Below are positions 3,691 through 61,615 of a DNA stretch of 64,000 nt, piece by piece. Position 1 is the stretch's first letter, and each line of letters opens with the position of its first letter. The stretch comes from a virus (Duplodnaviria > Caudoviricetes). The notes below the pieces were generated by a model, which was given only the letters and a program-made list of their open reading frames with translations, made no database searches and had not been told where the DNA came from. The position numbers were made by a program, and so were the translations under genes. The stretch is from IMG/VR virus record IMGVR_UViG_3300011517_000006, positions 24,476-88,475 of that record; one strand, 5' to 3'.

Positions 3691-5801
3691 TAGAAGCTCC
3701 ATTTCTTCTTGGCCGCTGCGACCTCGGCCGAGCTGGCGGCGGGCGCAGACAGCGTTTCCGACTGACCGGCTGGCGGACGCTCCCACAGCGCCTCCAGGCC
3801 GGCCTTCTCGGCCTGTCTGCGACGCGCCAGCTCAAGCCAGTCCGGCTCGGCGCCCGAAACCCCGATGCCCAGAGAAGCGGCCAGCGCGCGGTTGTAGACC
3901 CACAGGTCCAGCTCCTCGTTGCGACGGCGGACGCGAACCCAGGCCTCATCCTTCACGACCCCCGTCTTGCTGTCCTGGACCGAGACCAGAGCCTCGCCGG
4001 TCAGTTCCTCGAAGAAGTCCCGCTCGACCCACCCCGGCCAATGGGGGCGACGCGGCGCCCGAGCGCCCTTCTCCCCTTCCAGGCTCAGCGGAATCGCCTC
4101 GTTCATCAGCGTCCGCTTCAGATCCCAGGTCCCGACGCGCCAGGTCCGGCACGAAACCACTCGCCCTTCCGGCCCTTCCAACTTCTGTTTCGCGCCTCGG
4201 CGAAGCGGCATCCGTCCCCAGCCGTCAGCGCCGTCCAAGGCCTTCGATTTCCCGTGCGCCGAGCAGTAGGCATAGACGTGGAAGGTCCCGTAGCCGGAAT
4301 CGACGCCCTGCACCTCAGTGGCGACATAGCCGCCGTCCTCATGCGGCCACCTCTTGCGCTCCAGCTGCGCCAGCTCGGCCCATATCTGCGGCTCCGACGG
4401 CCCGCCCTCGATCCGCCCCTTATCGACGGGGACGTGCTCAGCATCGGGGCCCCAGGCGTAGGCCGTCCACTGGGCCCAGTCCCCGTTCAGGTCGACGGCG
4501 ATGGTGACGATCTCGTAGCCCGACGGCACCACGCCCTTGGTGAACCGGCCGTCCCGACGTTCCAACAGCTTGTCGACATCGGCCTGCTGGACCGTGACTT
4601 CGTAAGCCTCGCCGAAGATCTGCTGATGCAGGGCGATCTTCGCCTCTTCATCCGTCGCATCCCGGATCTGTTCGGCGATATAGGCCCAGTCCACGGCGTC
4701 GGACACGACCTGCCAGGCGTGGTAGCTGGGCTGTCGGCCCTCTGTCGGCCGTTCCCGCCAGGCCTCGTACTCGCTGACCGCGATGAAGGCGCCGGGCGCC
4801 GGATTATGAGGGTCCGCCGACGGGAAGGTCGGTATCCAGCCGCCGCGCACGCCGTGCGCAGGTTCGCGATACGGGTGACACGCCTCGACCATGGCACGCT
4901 TGTGCCGATGCTCTATCACGCCGCCGCATGACGGGCAGTTGAAGTGGGGCGTTTCGCCCTTCTCCACGCCCATCATCAGCTCGCGATCCAGTCGGATCAG
5001 CACCCCGCCGGGCAGCGACGAGCAATGGGGACAGGGCAGGTACAGCCGGCGCTGGTCGCCGATGCGATAATCGGCCGTCACCGGGCAGCCGGTCAGTTCG
5101 CCTTCATTCTCCTCCGAACGACGAACAAGCCCGGGCGTCGAGTTGTGGAAGGTCTTAGCGCCGGCCAGCTCCCACTGAAGCTGGCGGACCTTGATCTGCT
5201 TGTGCGGGTCGCCCCGATCCCCGACCGACACGCTCCAGTTCGGCGTCTCTTCCTTCACCACCAGGCAGAATGTGACCATCTGCAGCGGCTTGGCGCTGGT
5301 CGTGCCGAAGAACTGTCCGTAACCGCCCGGGAAGCGTTTGTAGGTGTTGGTCGAGCCCTGCTCATCCCGCGAGGTCACCGCACGGATCTTGCGGCGCAGC
5401 TCGGGGGTGGCGTCGACAAGCGGTTGCCACTTCGTCCGGTTGTACTTGAGCGCCTCGTCGCCGCTAGGCAGGGCGACGCCCCACGGGCGAGCCACCACAG
5501 CCGAGTAGTAGAGCGTCGCTAGGACGCCGATCGTCGTCTTCGCGATCTGGGCGGAACCGACGAAGGTGACCGTCCTAGCCGGATCATCGGGGTGAAGCCG
5601 GTCCAGCGGCTCGATCAGATACTCGAACCCATCCCACGATAATGGGCCTTCCCGCGTCGTGCCCGTCTCACCGGGGATGACGACGCGACCTTCGGCCCAG
5701 GCGCTGATCATCTGATCGGGGGCAGGCGTCACGGCCGTCGCCATGGCCATGACCAGCGACGCCGCCTGCCGCGCCAGCTCGGCGCTGCTGAACAGGCTCA
5801 T
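3690..5801 (-). CDS. Terminase large subunit, GpA family
   Basis: 703 aa; GSAQIAKT Walker A, STP motif, YLPCPHC zinc motif, AVDL nuclease motif, RNEELDLWVY. Confidence 0.92.
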   Translation of the reverse strand: MSLFSSAELARQAASLVMAMATAVTPAPDQMISAWAEGRVVIPGETGTTREGPLSWDGFEYLIEPLDRLHPDDPARTVTFVGSAQIAKTTIGVLATLYYSAVVARPWGVALPSGDEALKYNRTKWQPLVDATPELRRKIRAVTSRDEQGSTNTYKRFPGGYGQFFGTTSAKPLQMVTFCLVVKEETPNWSVSVGDRGDPHKQIKVRQLQWELAGAKTFHNSTPGLVRRSEENEGELTGCPVTADYRIGDQRRLYLPCPHCSSLPGGVLIRLDRELMMGVEKGETPHFNCPSCGGVIEHRHKRAMVEACHPYREPAHGVRGGWIPTFPSADPHNPAPGAFIAVSEYEAWRERPTEGRQPSYHAWQVVSDAVDWAYIAEQIRDATDEEAKIALHQQIFGEAYEVTVQQADVDKLLERRDGRFTKGVVPSGYEIVTIAVDLNGDWAQWTAYAWGPDAEHVPVDKGRIEGGPSEPQIWAELAQLERKRWPHEDGGYVATEVQGVDSGYGTFHVYAYCSAHGKSKALDGADGWGRMPLRRGAKQKLEGPEGRVVSCRTWRVGTWDLKRTLMNEAIPLSLEGEKGARAPRRPHWPGWVERDFFEELTGEALVSVQDSKTGVVKDEAWVRVRRRNEELDLWVYNRALAASLGIGVSGAEPDWLELARRRQAEKAGLEALWERPPAGQSETLSAPAASSAEVAAAKKKWSF

Positions 5802-7457: not shown

Positions 7458-9258
7458 AAACAGGCGGCTCGAACGCGGAAACCTCTGCAGGATCGGCCCC
7501 CAATCCGACCGGCCTCTCCAGCCAGGGGGTCAGGGGGACAGCCATGGCCCGGCTCTGGTGCATGCCGAAGCGCACCGGAGTAGGCAGCGCTCGCGGCGCA
7601 TAGGCGTCGCCGAGGTCTGCCAGGTGCTCCAGCACCCCGCGCCAGTTGGCGTAGTGGGTTCCCGCCAGCGCCCGCGCGAGAGCGGGGTGGTTCGTAGAGA
7701 TCACCAGCCATGGCCCGGGCCTGTCGTGACTGCCGTGACCGTTCTCGACCTTCAGGCCGAAGGTCTTCAACACCTTCTCATGGACGCCCGGGCTCTCCAG
7801 TTGCTCCTGGATCATCTCGCCGATGGTCAGGTGGCGATCCTTGGCGTGCTGGCCCGAGTTGATGGCCCATATCCGCGACAGACAGGCCTGCCCCGGATTC
7901 TGCGCGGCCGAGGTCTCCTCCCGGTTTCGGATCAGCGCCGACCACCTGGCCACCTCCTCCCGTGCCGTCTCGATCGTCAGCGCCTCATCGTGCAGCAGCA
8001 GCCTTCGCCCGGCGGCGAGCGCGGCGACCAGATCGGCTGCCCGGGGCGTCTGCCCGCTTTCCCCCAGCGCGGCCTTCAACAGACCTACGTCCGACCGGTA
8101 TCGCTTGGCCTCGCGCACGGCGCGCGCCAGCAAGCGGGGGGACACCTCCCTTGCCCAGTCTATGGCTTCCTTCAGCGTTTCGTCGGCGCCGCCCTTGGCC
8201 TTGCCCAGCAGCCTCAACCGCACTTCGACCACCCGCGTGGCCATGGCGTCGCCCAGCTGCACCGGCAGGATGCTGGCCAGGTAGGCGGACCCCACGGCGG
8301 TCTGACCCGCAGTCCGTCCGCCCGTGTCGCCCTGACGCCGGGTCGATCCCTCGCCGGTCGACATGCGTCGCAGCACTTCCAACGCCTTCTCGACCGGCCC
8401 CTGCCCGTCCACGCTGGGCTCCGCCTCGTCCAGGTAGAGCGCCCGCGCCTCGCCGGACAAGCCGTTGCGCAGACCCGCCTCCGAGAAGCTGTCCAATAGA
8501 TCCCCGGCGTTCGCGCTGCCTGCCGCCTGCAGCAGGCGCGACAACGTCGTCTTGCCGGCCCCTGCTCCGCCGCTCACGCTGGCGTGCGGCCTGAACGGCG
8601 GAATGGCGCCGAGCAGCGCGGTTCCCTGCCATCCGAACAGCGCGTCCGCCTCGCTGAGGCCATCGGGATCCCGAGGATCCAGCGGGGCGAAGTTCCACAT
8701 GTTCATCAGCTCGCGCAGCTGCTCGCCCTCCGCGATGGTCGCGGGCTTGCCTGGCCTGGGGGCCGGGGGGCGCAGCAGCCACAAGGGACCGCGGTTGCGG
8801 GCGCCGTTCCTCAACGCCTCCGCCACCGATTCCCAATCGTCATCGCCGAAGGGCCAACGGCCGACCGCGTCGCCGGCATGGACGACCGGACCGTCTATGG
8901 TCGACCACACCCCGTACCCACGCTGCGGCCGATCGCTGTCCCACCGGCCGGCCTTGCGGCATCGATCGACGAACCACTGGGCCGCCATGTCGCGCTGCAG
9001 CTTTCCATCGTTGTCGCGCCATTGGGCCAGGAACACCCGCCCCTCCAGGCTGACGAACAGGTCGGTCTTCAGCATGCCGGCGATCTTGGACGCCGGCTCG
9101 CGGCGCAACTCGCCCTCAGGCAGGGCGAAATGCACGTAACCGCCCTCGAACCCCAGCGGGATCACCGGACAGTCCTCGACCTTCGGCTCGATCCAGACGG
9201 CGCCGGACGCCGCCTCGCTGTCGGGATCGGCGTCATCCATCACATAGGAATCGTTCAT
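7399..9258 (-). CDS. Replicative P-loop ATPase/helicase (SF3-like)
   Basis: Walker A GGAGAGKTT, Walker B LYLDEAE; coupled to primase gene. Confidence 0.75.
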   Translation of the reverse strand: MNDSYVMDDADPDSEAASGAVWIEPKVEDCPVIPLGFEGGYVHFALPEGELRREPASKIAGMLKTDLFVSLEGRVFLAQWRDNDGKLQRDMAAQWFVDRCRKAGRWDSDRPQRGYGVWSTIDGPVVHAGDAVGRWPFGDDDWESVAEALRNGARNRGPLWLLRPPAPRPGKPATIAEGEQLRELMNMWNFAPLDPRDPDGLSEADALFGWQGTALLGAIPPFRPHASVSGGAGAGKTTLSRLLQAAGSANAGDLLDSFSEAGLRNGLSGEARALYLDEAEPSVDGQGPVEKALEVLRRMSTGEGSTRRQGDTGGRTAGQTAVGSAYLASILPVQLGDAMATRVVEVRLRLLGKAKGGADETLKEAIDWAREVSPRLLARAVREAKRYRSDVGLLKAALGESGQTPRAADLVAALAAGRRLLLHDEALTIETAREEVARWSALIRNREETSAAQNPGQACLSRIWAINSGQHAKDRHLTIGEMIQEQLESPGVHEKVLKTFGLKVENGHGSHDRPGPWLVISTNHPALARALAGTHYANWRGVLEHLADLGDAYAPRALPTPVRFGMHQSRAMAVPLTPWLERPVGLGADPAEVSAFEPPVWDGSGDRASRNASHGESHE

Positions 9259-10562
9259 GCGGACACGCCCCCGGCTACGCTCGCGGCGGCCTCGGCCGCC
9301 CTGATCACTTCGTTGAAATCCATGCCGATCGGCGGGCGCGAGACACGCACCTGCGTCGAACTTCCGGTGCTCAGGCGGCGGCTCCAGCTGGCCCGGGCCA
9401 AAGCGCCGCTCACGCGCGCCCGCTCGGCGCTGTCACGCACCGCCTCGATCATTCGCTTTTGCTGGCGCCCGCTACGTCCTTTGACCGTCACCGGGCTCAT
9501 GTCGCCGTCGACGGCGATGTCGATCAGCCCCCACGGGTTCTCCGGATCCTCCGGCCAGGTGAAGCCGGGCCGCAAAGGATCCGCCCTGACCCGCCAGATG
9601 TCCCGTGCGCCATCCTTGTCGATGGCCTCGAAGCCGCTCAACCGATCCAGCGATCCCGCCGCAACCGCCCGAACCGGCCGGCTCAACGGCCCAGCCAGCA
9701 TCATGGCCCGCGACGCCGCGTTCTCGACGCCCTCCGCCACCACGAGGGGGCCTGGGGCGTCCGGTCGCGTCAACCACAGCCCGCCCGGCAGCACATAGCC
9801 CTCGATGTCGCCATGCCGGTCCGGCCGGGGCGGCCCCGCCAGTCCGTCGCGACGCGCCAGCACGAAATGGCCCTGCGGCCCCAGCATCCGCTTCGCCGGC
9901 GACCGGTGCGTCTTCCCGCGCCCGTTGGGCGCCAGATAGGTGCAGTGCACGCCGCCGGTCGGACCCAGCTCCGTCATGACCAGAATGACCATCGCCGGCA
10001 GGAACACGCCCCGCTCCGGATGGCCGCTATGCCAGGTTCGCGGATTGAACCCGACCAGAGCCAGCATCCGCGCCGCGACGGGCCCCCGGATGCTCCGCGC
10101 CTCTTCCAGATAGACCTGCGCCAACGACCCGGCCGCGGGCTCACGCTCGCGCCAGATCTTGCGCGCCATTTCCAACCGCCATGCGGCGTCGGCCAGCGCC
10201 TCGGCTTCGGCCTGTTTCGACGCCTGCGCACGCCGTGCGCGCGAAGCCTCGCTTTCGGGCTTCAACTCGCCGCCCATCAAACGGCGGGCCGCGTCGGCCA
10301 TCGTCTCATCGCCGCCTGAGAACAGCCGATGCTCCAGATCGATCACATCGCCGCCGCGCGGGTCGCAGGAATAGCACTGCCAGCGCCGCCCATCGGCGGA
10401 CACGCGGAACGGGGCTAGTTTGCTCTTGGCCCCGCATTCATTCAGGGGGCAGACGCCTCGATAGCCCTTGCCCGTCTTGCGCAGCTTGCACTTGGGCGCC
10501 CGGATCGCGATGTCCTCGCACCGGACCGCCGCACGCGCCCTGTCGAACAGCTCGTCGCTCAT
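9255..10562 (-). CDS. DNA primase (CHC2-type Zn finger + toprim)
   Basis: GVCPLNEC...WQCYSC zinc finger, KRMLG, VVAEGVENA toprim; start MSDELF at 10562. Confidence 0.8.
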   Translation of the reverse strand: MSDELFDRARAAVRCEDIAIRAPKCKLRKTGKGYRGVCPLNECGAKSKLAPFRVSADGRRWQCYSCDPRGGDVIDLEHRLFSGGDETMADAARRLMGGELKPESEASRARRAQASKQAEAEALADAAWRLEMARKIWREREPAAGSLAQVYLEEARSIRGPVAARMLALVGFNPRTWHSGHPERGVFLPAMVILVMTELGPTGGVHCTYLAPNGRGKTHRSPAKRMLGPQGHFVLARRDGLAGPPRPDRHGDIEGYVLPGGLWLTRPDAPGPLVVAEGVENAASRAMMLAGPLSRPVRAVAAGSLDRLSGFEAIDKDGARDIWRVRADPLRPGFTWPEDPENPWGLIDIAVDGDMSPVTVKGRSGRQQKRMIEAVRDSAERARVSGALARASWSRRLSTGSSTQVRVSRPPIGMDFNEVIRAAEAAASVAGGVSA

Positions 10563-11248
10563 GCCGCGATCTCCGCAGCCCTGACAGCGGCCTCGATCCG
10601 GAAGCAGGCGGTGTCGAAATGCTTCGGATCGATCTCGACCCCCGTGAACCTCAGGCCCCGCTTGATCGCCGCCACGCCGGTCGAACCGCTGCCCATGAAG
10701 GGGTCGCACACGTTCGCGGCGTTGATGGTGGCCAACACCTTGTCCATGACCGGATCGGGCTTGACCGTCGGATGATCGACACCGGTGAAACGGCCGCTCT
10801 CGCTCAGGATCCACCGCGCCTTGTCGGTCAGGCTTCCGACCGGATGCGCGCCCGCCAGCCAGGCGTGAACCCAGAACTCCGTGTCCGGCCGATAGTGCTT
10901 GTTCGCCACCGGCAGCGGGTTGGTCTTGTGCCAAGCGCAGACGACGGTCCGATGGTACCGCGCAGCCAGACGCGGCAGCAGCTGGGGCAGCTGATCGTTA
11001 TGACAGAACACCGCCACCGACCGGAACGTGGCCGGCGAACAGATCCGATCGTCGAACCCCTGATCCAGCCCGGCCGCCGCGATCCGATCCATGTTCGGCC
11101 GGGCCTTGCGGAAGCGTCCTGCCCCGCGCGTGTTGAACGCATACGGCGGATCGAACACCCCCGCGTCCTGGGGGCCCAGGGTCCGCACCACCTCGTACCC
11201 GTCGCCCAGGTAAAGCGTCGCCGGCCCGATGACCTCGATCCGGCTCAT
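10559..11248 (-). CDS. DNA N6-adenine/N4-cytosine methyltransferase (beta class)
   Basis: DPPY motif IV before DPFMGSGSTG motif I; HPTVKP; GVEID. Confidence 0.88.
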   Translation of the reverse strand: MSRIEVIGPATLYLGDGYEVVRTLGPQDAGVFDPPYAFNTRGAGRFRKARPNMDRIAAAGLDQGFDDRICSPATFRSVAVFCHNDQLPQLLPRLAARYHRTVVCAWHKTNPLPVANKHYRPDTEFWVHAWLAGAHPVGSLTDKARWILSESGRFTGVDHPTVKPDPVMDKVLATINAANVCDPFMGSGSTGVAAIKRGLRFTGVEIDPKHFDTACFRIEAAVRAAEIAA

Positions 11249-11646
11249 GCCGCCGCCCCGCGCGAGGCTTCGATCTGTCGCCGCGCCTCGGCCTTGTTGG
11301 CCGCTGTCATGAAATAGCCCACGCCCCAGCGGGTGCCGATCTCGATCCCGAACGGCTTCAGCTTCCGCCGGATGTGGCAGACGAAGACGTCCACGATCTT
11401 CATCTCGGGCTCATCCTCGCCCCGGTCGCGGTAAAGCGCCGCCATCGCGGAGTCCTTCGTCAGCAGCTCGCGCTCCAGCAGGACCCCGAACAGTCGGGCC
11501 TGCTGGACGGTCAGCCCCCACTCCAGCGGCGGCAGGACGCACAGGCCCATCGCCTCCTCCAGCTCAACGATGCGGTCTTCCAGGCGCGTGATCGTGGCCT
11601 GCAGCGCGGCCTCGCGCGCAACGGGGTCAACCTGCTCGACGGCCAC
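11245..11646 (-). CDS. Receiver-less OmpR/PhoB winged-helix protein, CtrA-like DNA-binding domain
   Basis: LTKDSAMAALY...DEPEMKIVDVFVCHIRRKL...TRWGVGY compared with recalled CtrA DEPELKIIDVFICKLRKKL...TVWGRGY. Confidence 0.8.
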   Translation of the reverse strand: MAVEQVDPVAREAALQATITRLEDRIVELEEAMGLCVLPPLEWGLTVQQARLFGVLLERELLTKDSAMAALYRDRGEDEPEMKIVDVFVCHIRRKLKPFGIEIGTRWGVGYFMTAANKAEARRQIEASRGAAA

Positions 11647-12544
11647 GACGTTTCCCCTTCCGGTACAGAACGATGGCCAGGGCCTTCCACAGCGGCGTCT
11701 TGTGCGTAGCCGCGAAAACCGCAGCCTCCTGTTCCGCCGCCTCGCCCAGCGCCAGCATCGCGTTCGCCACCCCTTCCGCGTCGATGTCCTCGCGGTATTC
11801 CTCGTCGTGCAGCAGCGTCTCGACCGCCTTGATCTGACCCGCCGTCAACGGCTGCGCCCGCCCCTTCACCAGGGCCTCCAGCACCATGCGCGCCCGCATG
11901 GCGCCGCGCCGGTTGATCAGGGCGCCGATCGCTCGCACCGCGACCGTGTCTCCGATGGCCCAGACCCCGTTGCCTGGCTGGGCGCGCAGCACTCTCACCC
12001 CGGCGCGGGCGCAGACCTGGTCAATTGTCAGGGCGTCCTCGTCCCCGGCCGCCGCCGCCGCGTAGTGCATCTGCATCGGTGTGATGTTCAGCCGGTCGCG
12101 GTTGTGGCCGATGAAGCTGTGGGCCCGCTCTGATCGGCTCGCCGCCTCGACCACCATCACCGGAATGGTGGTCACCATCGGATGGCTGCACGCAGCGATC
12201 GCCGTATGCTGGCCGTCGATCACCTCCAGCCCGCGCTCCGTCCGGGCGCAGACCGGCGGCTTGAACCGACGCCAGTCCCAGCGGGCGCAGATCTTGCGCA
12301 CCAGCTTGATGGACCGCTCCGACAGGTTGCGCTGATACCCTTCATCGATCAGCAGCGTGCCTGGATCGACCCATTCGAACGTCGGCGACGCCGTCTCGGC
12401 CGCCCCGGCCTCGACCCCCGACAGATTGATGGCCTTCACGCCCCTCAGGGCCTTCGACACCGCTGCGGCCGCCAACTCGGCGTGGCATGCGGCCACATAG
12501 CGGTCGTCCGCCTGGCGAAACGCTTGACTGCCCAGCTCCGTCAT
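11627..12544 (-). CDS. ParB/Srx-like domain protein
   Basis: LLIDEGYQRNL...VIDGQHT motif; start MTELGSQ at 12544. Confidence 0.7.
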   Translation of the reverse strand: MTELGSQAFRQADDRYVAACHAELAAAAVSKALRGVKAINLSGVEAGAAETASPTFEWVDPGTLLIDEGYQRNLSERSIKLVRKICARWDWRRFKPPVCARTERGLEVIDGQHTAIAACSHPMVTTIPVMVVEAASRSERAHSFIGHNRDRLNITPMQMHYAAAAAGDEDALTIDQVCARAGVRVLRAQPGNGVWAIGDTVAVRAIGALINRRGAMRARMVLEALVKGRAQPLTAGQIKAVETLLHDEEYREDIDAEGVANAMLALGEAAEQEAAVFAATHKTPLWKALAIVLYRKGKRRGRRAG

Positions 12545-12903
12545 CCGTCGATGTCCTTTCGCTCGCGGCGCGTCGCCGCGCCCTGATGTCCGGCCAGCGC
12601 CTCGCGCGCCGCCTGCGCCGCCGCCTTCAGCGGCCCCTGCAGCTCGCGGCGGCCGGCCGTGGTCTCGGCGCAGTACCGCCGCGACAGGCGCGACAGCTGC
12701 ACGCACGGGTTCGATCGGGTGACCACGCCCGGCGCGCAGGCGTTCTTGGCCTCATGGGCGACGCGGGCCAGCGCCGTCATCGGCTTGCTGGGGGCCGCCG
12801 CCGCTGCGGCCTCGGCCTGGGCGATCAGTTCGTTCCAGCAGGCCTCGTCATTGGCCGTCATCCGGCCGTCGGGCCCGCCGCGCAGATTGCCGAAGCGGCT
12901 CAT
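12541..12903 (-). CDS. Hypothetical phage protein
   Basis: 120 aa, ATGA-coupled on both sides. Confidence 0.6.
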   Translation of the reverse strand: MSRFGNLRGGPDGRMTANDEACWNELIAQAEAAAAAAPSKPMTALARVAHEAKNACAPGVVTRSNPCVQLSRLSRRYCAETTAGRRELQGPLKAAAQAAREALAGHQGAATRRERKDIDG

Positions 12904-12940
12904 GGGCGGGCCTCCGGCTGGGCCGTCTCAAAGACAGCAT

Positions 12941-13249
12941 CTATCCAGCGAGGTCGAGCAACTGCTCCGCCAGTTTCAGGGCCTGAGCCTTCGACAGCTC
13001 GATCGAACGACCCAATCCCATCATCCCGCCGAAGTCTCCGACCGCCAACAGGATGTTGTCCTTTTCCGCCCGGACGATGACCTGATCGGTGCTCGTGGTG
13101 ACGCGGATGGTGGCCGTCGTCACGCTGATGGTCCCGTCCGCGCTGCGGCTGATCGTCTTTCGCTCGTACATGATGGGGCTCCCTTGCGATTGAACGGATG
13201 GATGGGCCGCTGGCGGAGGATTCGCCTCCGCCAGCGACTCGCTCTCCAT
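12941..13249 (-). CDS. Hypothetical protein (accessory)
   Basis: Protein-like composition, lower GC; start uncertain. Confidence 0.45.
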   Translation of the reverse strand: MESESLAEANPPPAAHPSVQSQGSPIMYERKTISRSADGTISVTTATIRVTTSTDQVIVRAEKDNILLAVGDFGGMMGLGRSIELSKAQALKLAEQLLDLAG

Positions 13250-13271
13250 TGGCGGCTTCCAAACTCAACCG

Positions 13272-13523
13272 ATGGAGAGAACTGAAATGGACGACGCCTT
13301 CATCGCCGCAACACGGTTCAAGATCGCCGCTCTCGAGACCGTTGTGGGGGACCTGATCACCGTGCTGCACGGCTTGGCCCCCGAAGAAATCGAAGCGCTT
13401 CAGATCGCGACCGAGCAACGCATGGCGAGTGCCGAGGACGACGTGTCCCGCCGGCTTCACGAACTCCGTCTTCAGCTTCTTGATGATGGCGTCTCGCGCA
13501 GCACAGCGCTTCAGGGGCGATAG
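13272..13523 (+). CDS. Hypothetical protein (accessory, opposite to operon)
   Basis: 83 aa helical protein-like ORF. Confidence 0.5.
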   Translation: MERTEMDDAFIAATRFKIAALETVVGDLITVLHGLAPEEIEALQIATEQRMASAEDDVSRRLHELRLQLLDDGVSRSTALQGR

Positions 13524-13579
13524 GCCCGATAGATCGGCCTGAACGCCGCCCCGTTCCATGTGGCTAGACGGGCGGCGGC

Positions 13580-14299
13580 TCATGGGCGGGCCCCCGAGGC
13601 TGCCGGGGCGCATTGGACTTCTCCGTCAGTTTCGTGATGAACAGAGCGATGCGTTTCCTCGCCGCCCTGATCGCCGCAGCCTTCACCGGCCTCGCTGCGC
13701 CCGCCTTGGCTGATCCGTGCAAGCGGATTCCCGACCGAGGCCCCATGCCCGCCGAACTGGCGCGCGGGCGCACCTTCTCCGGCCCGGTCGTCTACGTCGG
13801 CGACGGCGACAGCCTGTGTGTCGAGACCCTGCGAGAGCGGGGCGGGAATGGTTGGGTCGAGGTCCGCCTGGCGGACTTCAATGCGCCCGAGCTGAACGAC
13901 CCCGGCGGCCGCGCCGCCCGCGACGCCCTGGTCGCCATTGCCATGAACCGCCGCGTCGTCTGCGTCGCTGGCCGCAAATCCTACGATCGCGTCGTCGCCC
14001 GCTGTACGCTCGGCGGTGTCGGGCTCGGCGAGCGGATGCGGCGGCGGGGCATCGCCGAAGGCGGGCGCTGACGGTACAGCGAAGAACCAGTCTCCGCTGA
14101 ACGGAAGATCGCGCCGCAGCGCCTCATCCCTGATCTTTACCAATACAGGGTAGGACGGGTTGTCTCTCCCGTTTTCGTAACGTGAGATCGAAGGCCGCTG
14201 CACCCCCGCGATTTCGGCGAACTCCTCCTGACGGACGCCAAAGACATGGCGGCGCACCCAGCGGATCGGCGAGTCGGTTATGAGCGAATCACTAGCCAT
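13580..14299 (-). CDS. Cro-like XRE HTH protein; C-terminal tail runs antisense through the nuclease gene
   Basis: IRWVRRHVFGVRQEEFAEIAGVQRPSISRYENG HTH; divergent from cI. Confidence 0.75.
   Translation of the reverse strand: MASDSLITDSPIRWVRRHVFGVRQEEFAEIAGVQRPSISRYENGRDNPSYPVLVKIRDEALRRDLPFSGDWFFAVPSAPAFGDAPPPHPLAEPDTAERTAGDDAIVGFAASDADDAAVHGNGDQGVAGGAAAGVVQLGRIEVRQADLDPTIPAPLSQGLDTQAVAVADVDDRAGEGAPARQFGGHGASVGNPLARISQGGRSEAGEGCGDQGGEETHRSVHHETDGEVQCAPAASGARP
13637..14071 (+). CDS. Secreted thermonuclease (SNase-like) family protein
   Basis: Signal peptide MRFLAALIAAAFTGLAAPALA; VGDGDSL, VRLADFNAPE, YDRVVA motifs. Confidence 0.85.
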   Translation: MNRAMRFLAALIAAAFTGLAAPALADPCKRIPDRGPMPAELARGRTFSGPVVYVGDGDSLCVETLRERGGNGWVEVRLADFNAPELNDPGGRAARDALVAIAMNRRVVCVAGRKSYDRVVARCTLGGVGLGERMRRRGIAEGGR

Positions 14300-14304
14300 G
14301 CGCC

Positions 14305-14372
14305 TTTTGTGCGTGATTCGCACAAAAAGAACAGCTAGGAAGTTCGCCTTATGAACGTGCGCGAGGCGAACT
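14305..14372. promoter_or_regulatory. Prophage 1 operator cluster (GTKCG-N5-CGMAC) in the cro/cI switch
   Basis: Perfect palindrome TTTTGTGCG-TGATT-CGCACAAAA at 14305-14327; related sites at 14342-14356 and 14357-14371. Confidence 0.75.
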
Positions 14373-14392
14373 TATTGGGGATAGGCGGTCTT

Positions 14393-15025
14393 ATGACCGT
14401 TCGACGCCCCACAAATCGCCTCGGCCGGCCCGAACTTCCAGTGGAAGAGGATACGGCTGGAGGGCGCCTGCGCGCACTCAGGAAGCTAGCTCGAGAAGAC
14501 CAACAAGATCTTGCCGATGCTTTGGGCGTAAGCCGCACCCAAGTATCCAAGTACGAGAACGCCGGGCATGTAATGCCCGACTACATTATCGAGCGCGCCG
14601 CCCAACACTACGGGGTCACTCCCGCCTTTCTACGCTACGGAGATACCGACAACCGAATGGCCAAGGTGGTCGGACGCGTCGGCGCAGGCGGCCACGTCGA
14701 GGCCATCGAACAGCCGCCCTGGCGTTACGTCGAGGTCCCGGCGAGTTGGCGCGACGCGATTGCGCTCGAAGTCTCCGGCACCTCTTGTTGGCCGATCTAC
14801 GACGACGGCGACGACATCGTCATCAGAGGCGAGCGACGCTTGATAGCTGAGGAAATCATCGGCCGGATGTGCGTTGTCGAAACAGTCGACGGCCTTGGGC
14901 TAGTTAAGCGTGTGCGGAAGGGAACGCAGGAAGGCCTGTTCACACTTGAAAGCCCCAATGCGCCGCCGATCGAAGATGTGCAGCTCGCTAGCGGTCGCCC
15001 CGTGAAACTCCACGCCCCTCGCTAG
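14393..15025 (+). CDS. CI-like repressor (HTH + S24 peptidase domain)
   Basis: RLRALRK...DLADALGVSRTQVSKYEN HTH; VSGTSCWP serine and LVKRV lysine of S24. Confidence 0.88.
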   Translation: MTVRRPTNRLGRPELPVEEDTAGGRLRALRKLAREDQQDLADALGVSRTQVSKYENAGHVMPDYIIERAAQHYGVTPAFLRYGDTDNRMAKVVGRVGAGGHVEAIEQPPWRYVEVPASWRDAIALEVSGTSCWPIYDDGDDIVIRGERRLIAEEIIGRMCVVETVDGLGLVKRVRKGTQEGLFTLESPNAPPIEDVQLASGRPVKLHAPR

Positions 15026-15384
15026 TTCAAAAGATGCAAGCATCTCAAGTCCAAGTCTGAGCAACGCTCCTCGACGATCAACGGCTCTACCACCACTCCT
15101 CCAGTCGTGATCATCTGGCACTCGATCACACGAGGCGGGCCGTGAGAGAGGGTGCGGGGCGGGTGAATCCCCGGCGTCCGCGCGCCCGCTACTCCGCCCT
15201 CCCTGGCCTTGATCCATGCCAAGTTACAGGTTTGACCGGGTCGTTCATCTAACCCAGCCAACTGCACAGCCAAATCGCCACGCTGCTCTCTCGTCGTCGC
15301 ATCCTCGTGTGCCGCGAACATCACAGCAGCCACGCCCGCGAAAAGCAGCAGAACACAACCAACCGCCCAATTAGACTTCTTCAT
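15022..15384 (-). CDS. Membrane-anchored hypothetical protein with Cys residues
   Basis: N-terminal TM MKKSNWAVGCVLLLFAGVAAVMFAA; lower GC; convergent with cI. Confidence 0.6.
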   Translation of the reverse strand: MKKSNWAVGCVLLLFAGVAAVMFAAHEDATTREQRGDLAVQLAGLDERPGQTCNLAWIKAREGGVAGARTPGIHPPRTLSHGPPRVIECQMITTGGVVVEPLIVEERCSDLDLRCLHLLN

Positions 15385-15475
15385 CGTGGCCCCTCCGCGC
15401 CCCTCCTTTGTGCGCGATTCAGCACCGCCATGATAGGCGACCAATGAATTCCAAAGCGTCACATAACGCCAATAA

Positions 15476-15523
15476 GTGCGCTTGACGCACATACAAAAGC
15501 AGACATATGTTCGCGTTACGCAC
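15476..15523 (+). promoter_or_regulatory. Early promoter with two operators
   Basis: TTGACG -35 at 15482 inside GTGCG-CTTGA-CGCAC (15476-15490); second site GTTCG-CGTTA-CGCAC (15509-15523). Confidence 0.7.
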
Positions 15524-15540
15524 ATAACGCGGAGGCCTCC

Positions 15541-16071
15541 ATGGCCCAGTCTGATCTACCTGCCTTCGAAGCCGTACTCCGCTCGCCCCAGGGCGAGATA
15601 CGGGTTTGGCTTGAGCCTGCGACGAACCCGGACGCAGAGGCGCACGCCGTGCGCACTCGCCTGCGCATCGACTACGGCGACGAAGCCGACCGTCTTGTTC
15701 ACGACCAGGCCGCCCTGCGCCTGGTCGCCCAGCTGACCCGCGCCGTGCGCGGCCTGTCCGGCGCAGGCACGGCCGAGACCGCCGCCGTCGCCGCCGCCCC
15801 CAGCGTCGGCCCATGGCTAGTCGAGCGCACCGAGGCCGAGCCGACGACGCGCACCCTCGTCGCCCATCTGTTTCAGGACTACCTCGCCTGGTGCGACCGA
15901 CGCGCCTTCACGCCCCTGTCCCGTTTCGACTTCGGCCGCGAGCTGGAGCAGCGCGGCTTCCCCTCCGCAGGCAAGATTCGTCAGGGCGCGACCCAGGGTC
16001 ATGCGCGCGGCGGCCTGCGCCTGCGGCCGGTCGCTGTCGGGTCGGCTCTCAAGACGGGAGACGCCCGATGA
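15541..16071 (+). CDS. Hypothetical protein with a primase-C-terminal-type winged helix
   Basis: LFQDYLAWC...FGRELEQRGF...GGLRLR; RBS GGAGG. Confidence 0.6.
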   Translation: MAQSDLPAFEAVLRSPQGEIRVWLEPATNPDAEAHAVRTRLRIDYGDEADRLVHDQAALRLVAQLTRAVRGLSGAGTAETAAVAAAPSVGPWLVERTEAEPTTRTLVAHLFQDYLAWCDRRAFTPLSRFDFGRELEQRGFPSAGKIRQGATQGHARGGLRLRPVAVGSALKTGDAR

Positions 16072-16493
16072 TCCTCCCGCCCCACGTCTCGGCGCTCGCC
16101 GCCGTTCCGGCGCCGTCGAGGCCGGACGCCGCGTCCGCCCCGAACGTCTTCCCCGGCGCCGTCCCGGTCGTCAGCATCGATGACGACCTGCTCGACATCA
16201 TCGCCCAGCTGCACACCGCGCCCATTCGGTCCTTCGACCTCTCGACGGCCGCGGTGATCTCGGGCCCCTTCGTCGAAGGGCGCGTCTGCATCCGCATGGA
16301 CGGTCGGTCCTGGTCGCTTCCGACCGTCTCCTGTTCCGTCCTCGCCCTGCTGGTCCGCCTGGAGCGCGACTTGCGCGCCTGCGACCTCTTCGCCGACGCC
16401 TTCAACGCCGCCGTGGCCCAGGCCGAGGCCAAGGTGGACGCCGTCCACGCCTGGTCGGGTCGAATCCGACCGACCGAAGGGGACGAAGGCTGA
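16068..16493 (+). CDS. Hypothetical phage protein
   Basis: ATGA-coupled in early operon. Confidence 0.55.
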   Translation: MILPPHVSALAAVPAPSRPDAASAPNVFPGAVPVVSIDDDLLDIIAQLHTAPIRSFDLSTAAVISGPFVEGRVCIRMDGRSWSLPTVSCSVLALLVRLERDLRACDLFADAFNAAVAQAEAKVDAVHAWSGRIRPTEGDEG

Positions 16494-16900
16494 TGGCGTC
16501 CGCCCTTTCCTTCGCCGACGCCGCCGCCATGCGCGCAGCCCTGGCCGACAATGACACAGGCCCGTTGGTCGTGATCGAGCTGCGGCCGCCCTGCGCCTCC
16601 GAACGCATCGAGATCTCAGGCGGCTTCGACGGCCCCGACCCGGTCCAGGTGGTTAAATCCCTCTGCCGCGCCTTGGAATGCGGCCCGGGCGCCGTCGCCG
16701 CCGTCATCGACCCGACAGCGCGCGGCCTGCGCGGCGAAGAGGCGCGCTGTTACGTCCTGGACAAGGCGGACCGTCGCGTCGCCCGTATCTGCGGCCTCAG
16801 CTTCGCCTATGTGAACGTCGCGGCCTCGGCCCTGGCCAACAGCGGCTGGCGACCGGGCATGAACCGCGAGAGCGGCCTCCGTCCGGATGCCTTCCAATGA
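16493..16900 (+). CDS. Hypothetical phage protein
   Basis: TGATG-coupled. Confidence 0.55.
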   Translation: MASALSFADAAAMRAALADNDTGPLVVIELRPPCASERIEISGGFDGPDPVQVVKSLCRALECGPGAVAAVIDPTARGLRGEEARCYVLDKADRRVARICGLSFAYVNVAASALANSGWRPGMNRESGLRPDAFQ

Positions 16901-17046
16901 AGCGCAACGGCCGCCTTCTCACCGACACGGGCCGCGAAGCCCTCGCCGCCGTCCTGGTCATCCTCCTCGCCGTCGCCTTCGCCGGCGCTGCGCTCCAGGC
17001 CCGGGGACCCGCCCAACCCCTGCCCGCTCAACACCGGATCCGCTGA
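16897..17046 (+). CDS. Small single-TM protein
   Basis: [19 protein letters not shown]; ATGA-coupled. Confidence 0.5.
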
Positions 17047-17047
17047 C

Positions 17048-19024
17048 ATGGCTTCCCCTGCCCTGCGCGAAATGCGCGAGGCCGACTTCCCGGCCGTCGT
17101 GCACACCTACACCGACGTCCTGCGCCTTCTGCGTGATCAGCCGCAAGGCGACGCGGGCCATCTGGCCCGCCTGACCGGCCGTGACGGCTCGAACGTCCGC
17201 CGCGACATGCACAAGCTGGTCGACGCCGGCGTCGTCCAACACGACGGGGCCTGCTGGATCCTGACCGACAAGGGCCGTCAATGGGTCGCCGGCCAGGACG
17301 TGGCCGAGGGTCTGATTTCGCCCGACGGTTCCGCGGTTCCGGTCACCCGCTGTCCCATCGATCAGATCCGGCCCAACCCGGCCAACCGCCCGATCGACCC
17401 CGAGACCATTCCCGACCTGGCCCTGTCGATCATCGGCGCGGACGACGTGCTCCAGCCCCTGATCCTGACCCCGCCCGACGCGAACGGCGTGCGCATGATC
17501 CTGGCCGGCGAGCGTCGCTGGCGCGCTGTCCGCCACATCATGGAAACGGGCAGCACCCTGCCCGCCGCCCTGACGCCCGGCGTCCCCTTCGTCGAGCGCG
17601 AGGCGACCGAGGCCGAGGCTCTGCAGATCACCATCATCGAGAACAGCCAGCGCCAGGACCTCTCGCCATGGGAAGACGCCCAGCTGCTGCTGCAGCTGCA
17701 GGCCGCCACCGGCTGGAACGCCTCCGAGCTGGCCCGCAACATCGGCCGCGCGGCCGAGGGCGAACGCTCCGGGCTGCGCGACGTCCAGACCAAGCTGAAG
17801 GTCGCCCGCGAGGCCTCCCCCGCCGCCATCGCCGCCTATCTCGACAACGGCAGCTGGGACCAGCTGCGCAGCAGCGTCAGCCAGCCCAAGGCCACGACGC
17901 TCTCCGACCAGGTCGCCGAGTACGGCGCGGCCAGCCTCAAGCCCGGCGAACCCACCCCGCTTGAGCAGGCGATCGAGGAGGCGCAGCAGCTTTACACCGT
18001 CGCCGATTTCGGCGTCCCGGCCGATTGGAAGGCCGACGACTTGGGCGCGGCGGCAGCCTGGCTGGAGACCGGCACCCTCGAGATGCTGACCTGCACTGAC
18101 GGCAGGGTCAGCGCCACCATCTATGTGGCTCAGCTCAAAGGCGGCGCTTGCTGGCTGAACGGCACGTCGCACACCGCCGCGACGTCCGGCCACTCCTCCA
18201 GCCTGAATGGCGTCTGGAGATCCGCCGCCCCGGCCTTCGTGAGCCGGAAACGCGCGATTGAAGCGGCCGCCGCCTACCTCAAGCTCACCTACGGGGCGCA
18301 CCTGACCAAGCGCATCCGGGATTGGCTCAGCGACCCAGAAGGCGCGCCGACCGGCCCCCATGTTGTAAACGGGATCGACTACGGCAACGCCACCCGCGCA
18401 AACGAAGCGCGCTACGCCGCCGGCATCCTCCAGCGCCCGGCCGCCAACTACGGCTCAGCATCCCGCAGGGATCCGCCCGCGCCCGCCGCCGAACCCGGCG
18501 ACGCCGACACGCCCGCGCCGGCGTCCTCCGCCCGCGAAGAACTGGCCGAACAACGCCTCGAGCGCCTCGGCGCGGCCCTGCAGGTCCTGACCGAGCGGCT
18601 CGAGCCCCTGCTCGCCGTCCTGCGCGGCGACCGCACCGACGACGGCCTGGTCACGCTCGAGACCGACGACGCCGAGTACTACGAGCGCGAGATCTCCGAG
18701 GCCTGTCAGTGGGCCGAGGACGCCCTGGCCGACACCAGCACCGTCTTCGACGGCTGGGGCGAGGAGACGCCGCGCCCGGACCTGGGCGCGCCTGCCGTGC
18801 CGATCCGCCAGTCGATCACGGCGGACCACATCGTCTGTCTCGAGGACGGCCGCAAGTTCAAGTCGCTGAAGCGCCACCTGCGCACCCGCTACAACCTCTC
18901 GCCGGAAGAGTACCGCCGGCGCTGGGGTCTCCCGGCCGACTACCCCATGGTCGCGCCCAACTACGCCAAGGCGCGCGAGGATCTGGTCCGCCGGATGGCC
19001 CTCGGCCTGGCGGGGACGCGCTGA
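17048..19024 (+). CDS. wHTH-ParB-MucR(Ros) fusion protein
   Basis: ParB motifs [36 protein letters not shown]; C-terminal [30 protein letters not shown]...[14 protein letters not shown] MucR domain. Confidence 0.85.
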
Positions 19025-19458
19025 TGTCCGCCCGCCCCTGGATCGAAGGCGCCGCCCTTCTGGCCGCCCATCACCGCGCCGCACCGGCGCCCCGAACTCT
19101 TCACCGCAGGAGCTATCCCGTGTCCCCCGACGTCCGCTTCGCCCTGCTCAGGGCTGACCCCCAGAACCAGCAGTCGGCCAAACCTCTGGCCTTTCCCGAC
19201 ATCGGCGCCCTGGCGCGCCACATTCAGCGCGAACGCGCCGGACGCTCGATCGAGCTGGTCGACATCGAGGACCTGCGCTTCGACGGCGACGCCAACATGC
19301 GCGAGGGCGTCTCGGTCTACGTCCTGGACCTCGGCGGCGATCGCGACGGCCTGATCGGCCACTGCTGGCTTGACGGCCAGGGGCAGGACGCCCTGCGCCA
19401 CGCCCTCGCCCGCAACCAGCTGGCGAGCATCAGCGCCCCTTCGGCGAGGGCCGCCTGA
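19024..19458 (+). CDS. Hypothetical phage protein
   Basis: TGATG-coupled, 144 aa. Confidence 0.55.
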   Translation: MSARPWIEGAALLAAHHRAAPAPRTLHRRSYPVSPDVRFALLRADPQNQQSAKPLAFPDIGALARHIQRERAGRSIELVDIEDLRFDGDANMREGVSVYVLDLGGDRDGLIGHCWLDGQGQDALRHALARNQLASISAPSARAA

Positions 19459-19904
19459 TGGACGGCGCGACCTTCCCCTCCGTCCAGCCCGCGCCCGACC
19501 TCGCCGCCGCCGAGCCGCCCGCCCGCCTGAACCGGCGCCAGGCCGCCAAGCGCAGAACGCGTCAGCGCGTCCTCGCCGCCGCGACCGACCTGTTCAACGA
19601 CGTCGGCTACGCCAAGGGCACCATCCGGGCCATCGCCAAGCGCGCCGGCATGTCCACCGGCGCCGTCTTCGCCAACTTCATCGACAAGGACGACCTCTAC
19701 GTCGCCGCCTTCGGCCACCCGCCGCTGACGCCCGAACAGGGCCTCCGCCTGGCCGCCGCTCTGCGCGAGGCCGAAGCTTTCATCCGCGGCTTCGACGACG
19801 ACCCTCTGCAGGAAGGCGTTCCTGAGCTGCTGCAGGCCATCAAGGCGGTCGTGCCCCCTCCGCCGCCCGCACCGGCTCAGGCGACGGGAGGCGCCGATGC
19901 ATGA
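19458..19904 (+). CDS. TetR-family HTH protein with short, non-canonical C-terminus
   Basis: RQRVLAAATDLFNDVGYAKGTIRAIAKRAGMSTGAVFANFIDKDDL. Confidence 0.8.
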   Translation: MDGATFPSVQPAPDLAAAEPPARLNRRQAAKRRTRQRVLAAATDLFNDVGYAKGTIRAIAKRAGMSTGAVFANFIDKDDLYVAAFGHPPLTPEQGLRLAAALREAEAFIRGFDDDPLQEGVPELLQAIKAVVPPPPPAPAQATGGADA

Positions 19905-20262
19905 CCGCCTGCCTGGGCTACGCGCTCTCGATCATTCACACGGCCCTGATGCGCCTGCTCGGCCGCCGGCGCCTGCTCTGACGGCATCGCCCCCGCCCCC
20001 GGCCTATGTGGACCGGGGCTACCATCCCGGCGGCCGCTGGGAGCGGATCCTGCGCGCCATCCACGATCAGCCGCTGACCGAGACCGAGATCCTGCGCGCC
20101 GTCCACGACGGCCGCTACCCGCGCCGGATCGAGCGCCGCAAGATTCACGCCGCCCTGATCGCCATGACCCGTCAGGGCCTGACGGCGCGCCTGCCGGGTC
20201 GCCCGCCCGCCTTCACCGCCACCGCGCACGGCGTGCGCGTCCTGCATGGAGAGGCCGCGTGA
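19897..20262 (+). CDS. Hypothetical protein, possible winged helix
   Basis: Coupled ORF, 121 aa. Confidence 0.5.
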   Translation: MHDRLPGLRALDHSHGPDAPARPPAPALTASPPPPAYVDRGYHPGGRWERILRAIHDQPLTETEILRAVHDGRYPRRIERRKIHAALIAMTRQGLTARLPGRPPAFTATAHGVRVLHGEAA

Positions 20263-23926: not shown

Positions 23927-25555
23927 GTGATCCGCGTCGCCCTTTACGCTCGCTACAGCTCGGACCGACAGAACGAGCGCTCGATCTCCGATCAGTTGAG
24001 CCTCCTGATCCAGCACGCCGGCGCCAAGGGCTGGGCCGTCGTCGGCACCTACACCGACGCCGCCATTTCCGGCTCGGCCATGGCGAATCGCCCCGGGCTT
24101 CTCGCAGCGCTCGCTGCGGCCGAACGGGGCGAGTTCGACCTGCTGCTGGCGGAAGACGAAGACCGTCTCGCCCGCAACCTGGAACACTTGGCGCACGTGG
24201 CCAACCGCCTGGCCGACATCGGCGCCGGCATCGCCACCCTGTCGACGGACCGGGTCCAGGACATGCACGTCGCCTTCAAGGGGCTCATCGCTCAGGACTT
24301 CATTCGCAACCTCAGCATGAAGACCAAGCGCGGTATGGCCTCCAATGCGGAGAAGGGGCTCGCGACCGGCTCGCGCCTTTACGGCTATCGCTCCCAGCCC
24401 GGCGGCGCGGTCGAGATTGTGCCCGACCAGGCCGAGGTGGTCCGGCGCATCTTCTCCATGTACGTCAACGATCGCATGTCCTCGCGCGAGATCGCTGAAC
24501 GCCTCAACCGCGACAGGATACCCTCTCCGGCCGGCCGGGAATGGAACGCCTCATCCATTCAGGGCTCGCGCCAGCGCGCCAACGGCATCCTGCACAGCGA
24601 GATCTACGCCGGCGTAAAGGTCTACAACCGCGTCGAGATGCGAAAGGACCGCCAGACGGGGCGTAAGATCACGATCTGCAAGCCGCCCAGCGAGCACAAG
24701 CGCATCGACGTCCCCCACCTGGCCATCATCGACCAGGACCTGTGGAACGCCGCCCGGCAGCGCCTGGACAGCCGGCAGACGGCCGACCCTTCGCAGCGCG
24801 CAAGCCTGCGGCGGCGCCCGGGCCTGCTGTCCGGGCTGACCAAGTGCGGCTGCTGCGGGGCGTCCTACACCTCACTCAGCCAGGGGCGCCTGGTCTGCGC
24901 CGCCTATCGTGAGAAGGGCGTGTCCGCCTGCAATAACAACCGCCACGTCAAGCGCGCCGAGATCGAGCAGCGCGTGCTGGACGGCCTGCGCACGCGGCTG
25001 CTGGCCCCCGAGGCCATCGCCGCCTACGTCCGCGCCTATCACGCCGCCTGGGCCGAGCAGGCCGCCCAGGTCGAAGACCGCCGCCGCCCTCTGACGCGGC
25101 GGCTGGCCGAGGTCGAGCGCGCGATCGAGCGCGGGGCCGAAGCCCTGCTCTCCGGTGCGACGGCGGCCGCCGTCATCGGCAAGAAGCTCGAAGCCCTCGA
25201 AATCGAACAGGCCCAGCTCAAGGCGACCCTTGAACAGCTCGACGCTGAAGGCGCGCCGCCCGTGCAGCTGCACCCGCGCGCGGCCGAGAACTACGCCCGC
25301 AAGATCGAGCAGCTCCAGGCGCGCCTGGCCGAGGCGGCCGGCAGCACCGACGACGCGGACAGAGACCTGATCGGCAGCGTCAGGGGCCTGATCCAGAAGG
25401 TGGACATCGAGCCGATCAACAAATCGAGAGGATCGCCGGTGCGGGTCACCTTGCACGGTGACCTCGCCCGGTTCGTTCTCCCGCAACACCCACCAGCTAG
25501 TGGGTGTGCGTTGGTGGTTGGAGGCGGGATCGAACCGCCGACCTGTGGGTTATGA
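23927..25555 (+). CDS. Large serine recombinase (integrase of prophage 1)
   Basis: YARYSS catalytic serine, EDEDRLAR, recombinase domain, LSGLTKCGCCG...C...C zinc ribbon, coiled coil. Confidence 0.93.
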   Translation: MIRVALYARYSSDRQNERSISDQLSLLIQHAGAKGWAVVGTYTDAAISGSAMANRPGLLAALAAAERGEFDLLLAEDEDRLARNLEHLAHVANRLADIGAGIATLSTDRVQDMHVAFKGLIAQDFIRNLSMKTKRGMASNAEKGLATGSRLYGYRSQPGGAVEIVPDQAEVVRRIFSMYVNDRMSSREIAERLNRDRIPSPAGREWNASSIQGSRQRANGILHSEIYAGVKVYNRVEMRKDRQTGRKITICKPPSEHKRIDVPHLAIIDQDLWNAARQRLDSRQTADPSQRASLRRRPGLLSGLTKCGCCGASYTSLSQGRLVCAAYREKGVSACNNNRHVKRAEIEQRVLDGLRTRLLAPEAIAAYVRAYHAAWAEQAAQVEDRRRPLTRRLAEVERAIERGAEALLSGATAAAVIGKKLEALEIEQAQLKATLEQLDAEGAPPVQLHPRAAENYARKIEQLQARLAEAAGSTDDADRDLIGSVRGLIQKVDIEPINKSRGSPVRVTLHGDLARFVLPQHPPASGCALVVGGGIEPPTCGL

Positions 25556-25556
25556 A
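25512..25556 (-). tRNA. 3' half of tRNA-Met(CAT) only (att site remnant)
   Basis: Minus strand TTCATAA-CCCAC-AGGTC-GGCGG-TTCGATC-CCGCC-TCCAACC-A-CCA; no 5' anticodon stem, D-arm or 5' acceptor strand. Confidence 0.85.
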
Positions 25557-61542: not shown

Positions 61543-61615
61543 TCCAGACCTCCCCTGTCAGGCGAGTCTTAACGCAGATGTCTCGGCTAAGGTTGCGGCA
61601 CCGGACCGGGCGGGT

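Follow-up and report, generated by a model that had tools for sequence, protein, structure and literature searches.

A probable pair of ParB-linked DNA-binding modules with CtrA-type and MucR-type domains in the early region of a Brevundimonas prophage

How should one read a prophage early region that encodes DNA-binding domains resembling three kinds of host regulator next to a DNA methyltransferase? The question is raised by prophage 1 in a stretch of 64,000 nucleotides (nt), referred to here as the window, which spans positions 24,476 to 88,475 of the record IMGVR_UViG_3300011517_000006, which is 88.5 kb long and is classified by IMG/VR as a provirus. Four of its genes encode a CtrA-like winged helix-turn-helix (wHTH) protein (P0002), a ParB protein fused to a MucR zinc finger (P0003), a small TetR-type protein (P0004) and a beta-class methyltransferase (P0001), and a sequence-only reading had joined these four into a single candidate system for hijacking the host cell cycle. 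Our analysis points to a different arrangement. The early region of this lambda-like Brevundimonas prophage probably contains two independent ParB-linked DNA-binding modules and an ordinary orphan methylase. In module A, a gene for a DUF6551/ParB-Srx-like protein (P0176) would be translationally coupled to the CtrA-like gene on the replication-side operon. Module B would consist of the ParB–MucR fusion, followed by a phrog_30753 protein (P0255) and then by the TetR-type protein.

The DNA-binding domain of P0002, a protein that we call zipper-CtrA, matches the Pfam family Trans_reg_C at 29.7 bits (cut-off 26.2) over residues 45–112; this is its sole Pfam match, and no receiver domain was found by that search. 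Its best NCBIfam model is CtrA (NF045991) at 38.1 bits, the next being PhoB at 18, with a match that covers only model positions 167–221 and lies below the curated CtrA cut-off of 350 bits. By BLASTP, P0002 is 45% identical over 58 residues to the CtrA of Brevundimonas diminuta BD39 (E value 2e-11), whereas the 12 other OmpR-type regulators of that strain give E values of at least 0.15. We also built a maximum-likelihood tree of DNA-binding domains from 17 phage proteins, 28 CtrA sequences from across the class and other OmpR regulators (locus L037 of genome G041 was left out). The phage proteins and CtrA form a single clade with support of 100/99, separate from the 12 other host OmpR regulators, and not a group with non-CtrA OmpR families. 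The phage wHTHs are themselves monophyletic (100/100) on a long stem, which indicates an old offshoot rather than a recent capture. Of the 15 invariant columns of the family, 10 fall in the recognition helix and wing, where they match CtrA sequences by eye, and P0002 keeps the CtrA signature KI-DVF-C--R-KL and WG-GY in these elements. On this sequence evidence the P0002 wHTH is CtrA-derived and no generic OmpR domain, and the earlier description of a receiver-less, CtrA-like wHTH was borne out.

The AlphaFold2 (AF2) model of P0002, with a predicted local distance difference test score (pLDDT) of 84, consists of a single long helix at residues 8–33, a winged helix without the OmpR beta platform, and a final helix. 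Foldseek groups this model with OmpR/PhoB DNA-binding domains at root-mean-square deviations of 1.7–1.8 Å. Prediction of a complex of two wHTH copies scored 0.31 against a mark of 0.42, a value that bears neither way on dimerization. The C-terminus of the protein is AAA, and an AA ending is found in 64 of 141 family representatives where 4% would be expected. CtrA carries a C-terminal AA tag for ClpXP, and the ending of zipper-CtrA recalls that tag. The family comprises at least 152 clusters at 50% identity (E ≤ 1e-30), nearly all of them 120–140 residues in length. We picture zipper-CtrA as a signal-free dimer that would read CtrA-type half sites and would be short-lived.

The conserved partner of the wHTH is the DUF6551/ParB-like gene upstream of it. 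For homologs here and below, gene neighborhoods were taken from viral and genome loci. Of 80 diverse viral wHTH loci, 70 have a P0176 homolog, always directly upstream and on the same strand, with gaps of −16 to +480 nt; in prophage 1 the stop of P0176 and the start of the wHTH overlap by 20 nt. P0176 matches phrog_1033 with an E value of 1.9e-15, and its look-alikes in the protein atlas are DUF6551 clusters, mostly viral, the atlas record beginning at residue 55. Searches of Pfam and of PDB sequences with P0176 gave zero matches, and pairwise comparison with P0003 detected no similarity. In two unrelated viral contigs (loci L129 and L131), a MucR finger match lies directly upstream of the DUF6551–wHTH pair, so MucR also occurs beside this second ParB-like gene.

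Where might zipper-CtrA bind? The window has no exact CtrA box, and boxes with one mismatch number 1 against 0.62 expected; in the 80 wHTH-bearing phage loci, the N7 spacing of TTAA-N7-TTAA is no commoner than other spacings. We accordingly gave up the reading in which the wHTH binds CtrA boxes within the phage genome. TTAA is strongly rarer than expected on the whole contig (22 copies against ∼71 from base composition). If CtrA specificity has been kept, the lack of a CtrA box in the phage would place the targets on the host chromosome, and a host target for the wHTH is possible given this absence. The same observations have to be set against a purely phage-internal account, which we regard as rather unlikely. 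According to this account, the wHTH and the DUF6551 protein regulate or process phage DNA at diverged sites, the MucR finger is a generic replacement for the ParB C-terminal domain, and host regulons remain untouched. This view fits the finding that many unrelated phages have the wHTH pair in their early/replication module, and the long stem branch permits a change of specificity. However, the recognition helix hardly varies between phages that have different hosts and agrees with that of CtrA, whereas operator readers specific to a phage usually diverge, and prophage 1 has no standout repeated motif except the palindrome described below.

Module B is centered on P0003. The ROS_MUCR match of this protein (112.7 bits) covers only positions 45–123 of the 123-position profile, and ParB_N is present at residues 100–201 (36.7 bits) together with an additional N-terminal wHTH at residues 23–67 in Pfam, in agreement with the earlier account of a ParB-fused MucR domain that lacks its oligomerization region. 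The finger is 71% identical and 86% similar to the B. diminuta host MucR finger over 73 residues, shares with it the pattern C-x2-D...H, and corresponds to host MucR residues 63–135; host residues 1–62, the oligomerization part, have no counterpart in P0003. The N-terminal two-fifths of the protein form a ParB/Noc/KorB-type module with GERRWRA and ENSQR motifs, and G154, R157 and W158 of the former and N199 and R202 of the latter are invariant in 17 fusions of 26–89% identity (alignment A2). Foldseek matches of P0003 are Noc, Caulobacter crescentus ParB, Spo0J, KorB and Ros87, the last at 59% identity. The AF2 model has two long helices just before the finger, and a search of the atlas with the middle of the protein (residues 290–575) gave no usable match. 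We read P0003 as a ParB/Noc/KorB-type protein with intact CTP-pocket motifs, in which the usual C-terminal domain has given way to the pair of long helices and a MucR finger of host type.

The ParB–MucR architecture occurs in >100 database clusters, mainly from Brevundimonas but also from Paracoccus. Alphaproteobacterial viral contigs often carry MucR genes, and among 80 viral MucR loci ∼64 encode a full-length stand-alone protein and ∼14 a long fusion with the finger only. The phrog_30753 gene lies 3′ of the fusion in the distant loci L138, L143–L145, L149 and L150, often with a mini-TetR gene nearby, and the fusion/phrog_30753 cassette is present without the wHTH pair in L138, L141 and L142. 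No ParA-type ATPase was found on the 88-kb provirus record, which has no AAA_31 or CbiA match. Among close relatives, the middle of P0003 (17950–18770) and the mini-TetR diverge much faster than their neighbors. The finger bears on the phage-internal account in two ways. Non-specific DNA binding is also a property of canonical ParB C-terminal domains, which counts for the finger as a generic replacement, but the finger has been kept at 71–88% identity to host-type fingers although the middle of the protein diverges.

A 15-bp palindrome, GCGCACGSCGTGCGC, provides candidate sites for module B. With at most one mismatch allowed, 8 copies are present in the window where 1.2 would be expected, and 0 of 100 shuffles reach 8. 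The contig as a whole contains 13 copies, all inside prophage 1, at about one every 3 kb and within genes, with none elsewhere on the contig. The copy in the ParB–MucR gene is position-matched in relatives, and distant fusion genes have their own variant at this place. The 3.4-Mb genome of B. diminuta BD39 has 9 exact copies, 8 of them inside a related prophage of 42 kb. Distant fusion-bearing loci have the dispersed variants CGAACG-N-CGTTCG, CGAACC-N-GGTTCG and CGAGCG-N-CGCTCG, usually with one in the fusion gene, and loci that have just the wHTH pair, or just a stand-alone MucR, have essentially no repeated palindromes of this type. A k-mer screen of prophage 1 for further over-represented words yielded nothing convincing besides the palindrome. 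This distribution resembles that of parS sites, Noc-binding sites or KorB operators, and the ParB part of the fusion is most likely the reader of the palindrome, to judge from the sequences. The exclusive presence of these candidate sites on the phage also suits the phage-internal account. In the literature searched, we found no description of palindromes that are exclusive to a phage and tied to ParB–MucR.

The third gene of module B encodes the mini-TetR P0004. TetR_N matches residues 39–83 at 50.5 bits and ∼65 residues follow the helix-turn-helix (HTH) according to Pfam, so the HTH with a short C-terminus that had been noted from the sequence is real. At 148 residues, P0004 is shorter than every solved TetR relative found (at least 179 residues). 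The mini-TetR family has lengths of 119–155 residues, is encoded mostly beside ParB–MucR fusions, and has invariant H87 and TPEQG (91–95) in alignment A3. P0004 is 61–64% identical among close relatives, compared with 86–95% for flanking genes. Several distant mini-TetR relatives end in AA (...REAA, ...RVAA), as does the zipper-CtrA family; P0004 ends in ADA. The view that these domains have been stripped of their control parts holds in the sense that the parts were replaced in the wHTH (the receiver) and in MucR (the oligomerization region); P0004 is a member of a conserved mini-TetR family. This protein, which had been counted into the candidate cell-cycle system, has no link to the cell cycle.

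The methyltransferase P0001 has DPPY at residues 32–35 and FMGSGST at about residues 183–189, so that motif IV precedes motif I in the beta-class order. This DPPY-first order, recognized at the outset, stands and is common to many phage methylases, but the likeness to CcrM that had been drawn from it does not. Against the CcrM model NF050803, P0001 scores 36.3 bits with a cut-off of 830, in the motif I region only, and it is 41% identical to the host CcrM over 68 residues around motif I. Its closest solved relative is of the M1.HpyAVI/DpnA type (5hek). PADLOC returned only generic methylase matches for P0001 and none for the other seven proteins tested. By its sequence, P0001 is an ordinary small beta-class methylase that is CcrM-like in class only.

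These results bear directly on whether the four genes act together. As one coordinated system, four signal-independent mimics (CtrA-like, MucR-like, TetR and a CcrM-like methylase) would jointly redirect the host cell cycle or bring it to a halt. In favor of this reading, the resemblance of two of the proteins to CtrA and MucR is genuine and specific, the literature describes overlapping cell-cycle promoters for CtrA and MucR in Caulobacter, CtrA boxes are absent from the phage itself, and six close relatives carry all four genes. Nevertheless, the genes are split between two divergent operons and are jointly present only in one close lineage, at ∼90% identity: among the 80 viral wHTH loci, MucR occurs in 8, TetR in 5 and the methylase in 13, almost all from this same lineage. 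The relative L138 has three of the four, with the methylase, ParB–MucR and TetR present and the wHTH absent. The methylase is not CcrM-like beyond its class, and the conserved partners of the focal genes are ParB-like genes and phrog_30753 rather than one another. We consider joint action of this kind very unlikely, and the claim of a single system is not upheld.

The interpretation that we favor is the pair of independent modules. For module B, the fusion would load at the 13 phage-only palindromes, much as ParB loads at parS or KorB at its operators, and would then coat phage DNA with a MucR finger incapable of building MucR oligomers. Such a coat might protect the phage from silencing by host MucR, or it might anchor phage DNA to AT-rich DNA. 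A bolder form of this model, which we think unlikely, makes the two modules separate decoys of host regulators. The MucR-finger ParB clamp would be a cis-acting counter-silencer or a nucleoid tether for hitch-hiking, and a constitutively dimeric, ClpXP-timed CtrA domain with its DUF6551/ParB-like partner would sit on the CtrA boxes of the host, at the origin and at pilus, flagellar and division genes, with no input from the phosphorelay. Host targeting is possible from the sequences, mainly for zipper-CtrA.

Several points weigh against the two-module interpretation. The ParB-like label of P0176 comes from a PHROG match and from language-model look-alikes, and dimerization of the wHTH through its N-terminal helix is suggested only by the predicted shape of that helix. 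The lack of CtrA-box enrichment in the 80 loci fits a changed specificity as well as it fits host targets, and the long stem of the phage clade leaves room for such a shift. Finally, the mini-TetR, which co-occurs with many fusions, could be the palindrome binder instead of ParB. It was not found by tblastn in the fusion loci L143–L145 and L149, although a diverged TetR could have escaped the search, and this absence is the sole argument that disfavors the mini-TetR as the reader.

Table 1. Positions of the genes, repeats and palindrome copies of prophage 1 discussed in the text, in window coordinates (aa, amino acids; ORF, open reading frame)
Feature	Position	Strand	Basis
Palindrome, 1 mismatch	884..898	.	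Motif scan
Palindrome, 1 mismatch	2721..2735	.	Motif scan
Palindrome, exact, in large terminase gene	4845..4859	.	Motif scan
Palindrome, 1 mismatch	8113..8127	.	Motif scan
Primase (CHC2 zinc ribbon + DUF7146); marks replication side of minus-strand operon	9255..10562	-	Pfam; 94–95% identical in relatives
Palindrome, exact, in primase gene	10226..10240	.	Motif scan
P0001, orphan beta-class N6/N4 DNA methyltransferase, 229 aa	10559..11248	-	Pfam N6_N4_Mtase, 45.5 bits; phrog_67
P0002, zipper-CtrA, 133 aa: N-terminal helix (aa 8–33), CtrA-type winged helix, C-terminal helix ending AAA	11245..11646	-	Pfam, NCBIfam, BLASTP, tree, AF2
P0176, DUF6551/ParB-Srx-like protein	11627..12544 (ORF to 12706; likely start M55 at 12544)	-	phrog_1033, atlas look-alikes
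HTH_3 protein, first gene of minus-strand early operon	13580..14323	-	Pfam HTH_3
Inverted repeat at start of HTH_3 gene	14278-14327	.	Repeat search
CI/LexA-type repressor (HTH + S24 peptidase)	14351..15025	+	Pfam
Two 22-nt operator-like repeats (family D12), directly 5′ of first plus-operon gene (ATG 15541)	15472..15526	.	Repeat search and sequence reading
Palindrome, exact, 100 nt into plus-strand early operon	15640..15654	.	Motif scan
P0003, ParB–MucR fusion, 658 aa: wHTH, ParB_N, ParB HTH, poorly modeled middle, two long helices (aa 493–568), MucR zinc finger	17048..19024	+	Pfam, AF2, Foldseek
Palindrome, 1 mismatch, in ParB–MucR gene	17480..17494	.	Motif scan
P0255, phrog_30753 small protein; start overlaps fusion stop (TGATG)	19024..19458	+	phrog_30753, E 1.5e-17
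P0004, mini-TetR, 148 aa: TetR HTH + conserved ~40-aa C-terminal module	19458..19904	+	Pfam, alignment A3
Palindrome, exact	20224..20238	.	Motif scan
Large serine recombinase, right end of prophage 1	23927..25555	+	Pfam Resolvase, Recombinase, Zn_ribbon_recom

Prophage 1 begins to the left of the window and extends to the large serine recombinase; its close relatives, whose proteins are mostly 90–95% identical, reside in the chromosome of B. diminuta BD39 and on several viral contigs, and megablast of the region against cultured phages gave zero matches. The layout is lambda-like (Table 1), with a CI/Cro-type switch flanked by two divergent early operons. The minus strand encodes the HTH_3 protein, small ORFs, the DUF6551/ParB-like protein, the wHTH, the methylase, the primase, a 619-residue P-loop-like protein, the terminase and the portal. 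On the plus strand, the CI/LexA-type repressor gene and the operator-like repeats are followed by the operon with the ParB–MucR fusion, the phrog_30753 gene, the TetR gene and the serine recombinase gene. The GC content at third codon positions (GC3) of all four focal frames is 0.86–0.90, as is typical of genuine genes in this DNA of 68% GC.

Between the CI gene and the early promoter lies a minus-strand ORF (15022-15386) whose start, read by eye, resembles a signal or lipoprotein leader (MKKSNWAVGCVLLLFAG...), and its product may be a membrane protein expressed in lysogeny. A 25-nt C-rich direct repeat with 88% identity (21338-21362 and 21928-21952, 590 nt apart) lies around the end of an ORF of 498 aa. 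A second element begins at a tyrosine integrase gene (25550-26728, minus strand), which shares 6 nt with the end of the plus-strand serine recombinase gene in a tail-to-tail arrangement; the two mobile elements therefore abut directly. The second element has its own terminase and portal farther right. Segments of 245–472 nt with 85–97% identity are shared between window positions 60849-62119 and contig positions 340-1082 and 4760-5020, to the left of the window, with one of them inverted. These segments, which occur both in the leftmost part of prophage 1 and at the right end of the contig, may be tail-fiber-type cassettes exchanged between the two elements. A repeat near both ends had suggested a circular or terminally redundant contig, which was ruled out since only such short segments of 85–97% identity are common to the two ends.

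What would these modules mean for their hosts? MucR is an H-NS-like silencer of foreign DNA in alphaproteobacteria, and the papers that we found name few ways to relieve its silencing: anti-silencing mechanisms are called unknown in one (PMC12560781), and the phage side is called unexplored in a 2022 review of the family (PMC9779718). A self-loading ParB clamp with a MucR finger and mapped candidate sites offers a testable model of phage counter-silencing or genome tethering. The zipper-CtrA family would show how phages recognize the sites of the master cell-cycle regulator, or compete with it for them, independently of its signaling input, and would complement the published phages that bear host-CtrA binding sites. 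If neither protein touches the host, the locus is still a clean example of host DNA-binding domains re-used as parts of ParB-centered phage modules. A receiver-less phage CtrA was already known from RDJLphi1; the palindromes tied to ParB–MucR are new, as far as the literature searched shows.

Comparison with known systems places each protein near, but apart from, its closest counterparts. Like CtrA, P0002 has an OmpR/PhoB winged helix with CtrA-specific residues in the recognition helix and wing, and it ends in AA; unlike CtrA, it is phage-borne, has a long helix in place of the receiver and the N-terminal beta platform, and lies on a long separate branch. In the roseophage RDJLphi1, a CtrA-like ORF without a receiver (gp37), located between gafA and rcc01866 homologs, was noted by Hynes et al. 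2016 (PMC5026251) and Fogg 2019 (PMC6363796). Both P0002 and gp37 are phage-encoded DNA-binding parts of CtrA that lack the receiver, but gp37 has its DNA-binding domain first and then a C-terminal extension, with no N-terminal zipper, and tblastn found no P0176 relative in the gp37 locus. Rhodobacter and Paracoccus phages have further phage-CtrA architectures. The phages described by Mascolo et al. 2022 bear sites for host CtrA and no phage CtrA.

Among the TetR family, P0004 has the TetR_N HTH but ∼65 residues in place of the six-helix ligand-binding and dimerization domain. P0003 has the same zinc-finger DNA-binding domain as the Ros/MucR silencers (PF05443) without their N-terminal DNA-bridging oligomerization domain, and it differs from stand-alone phage MucR proteins, such as gp61 of Erythrobacter phage vB_EliS_R6L, in having the finger only, within a fusion. 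With KorB of plasmid RK2, Noc and chromosomal ParB, which are CTP-dependent clamps, P0003 shares ParB_N with GERRxR and ENxQR motifs followed by an HTH. Its prophage has many dispersed odd-length palindromes, one of them in the gene for P0003 itself, and no ParA. What sets P0003 apart from these clamps is that it is prophage-encoded, that it has an extra N-terminal wHTH, and that long helices and a MucR finger stand where they have a C-terminal dimerization domain.

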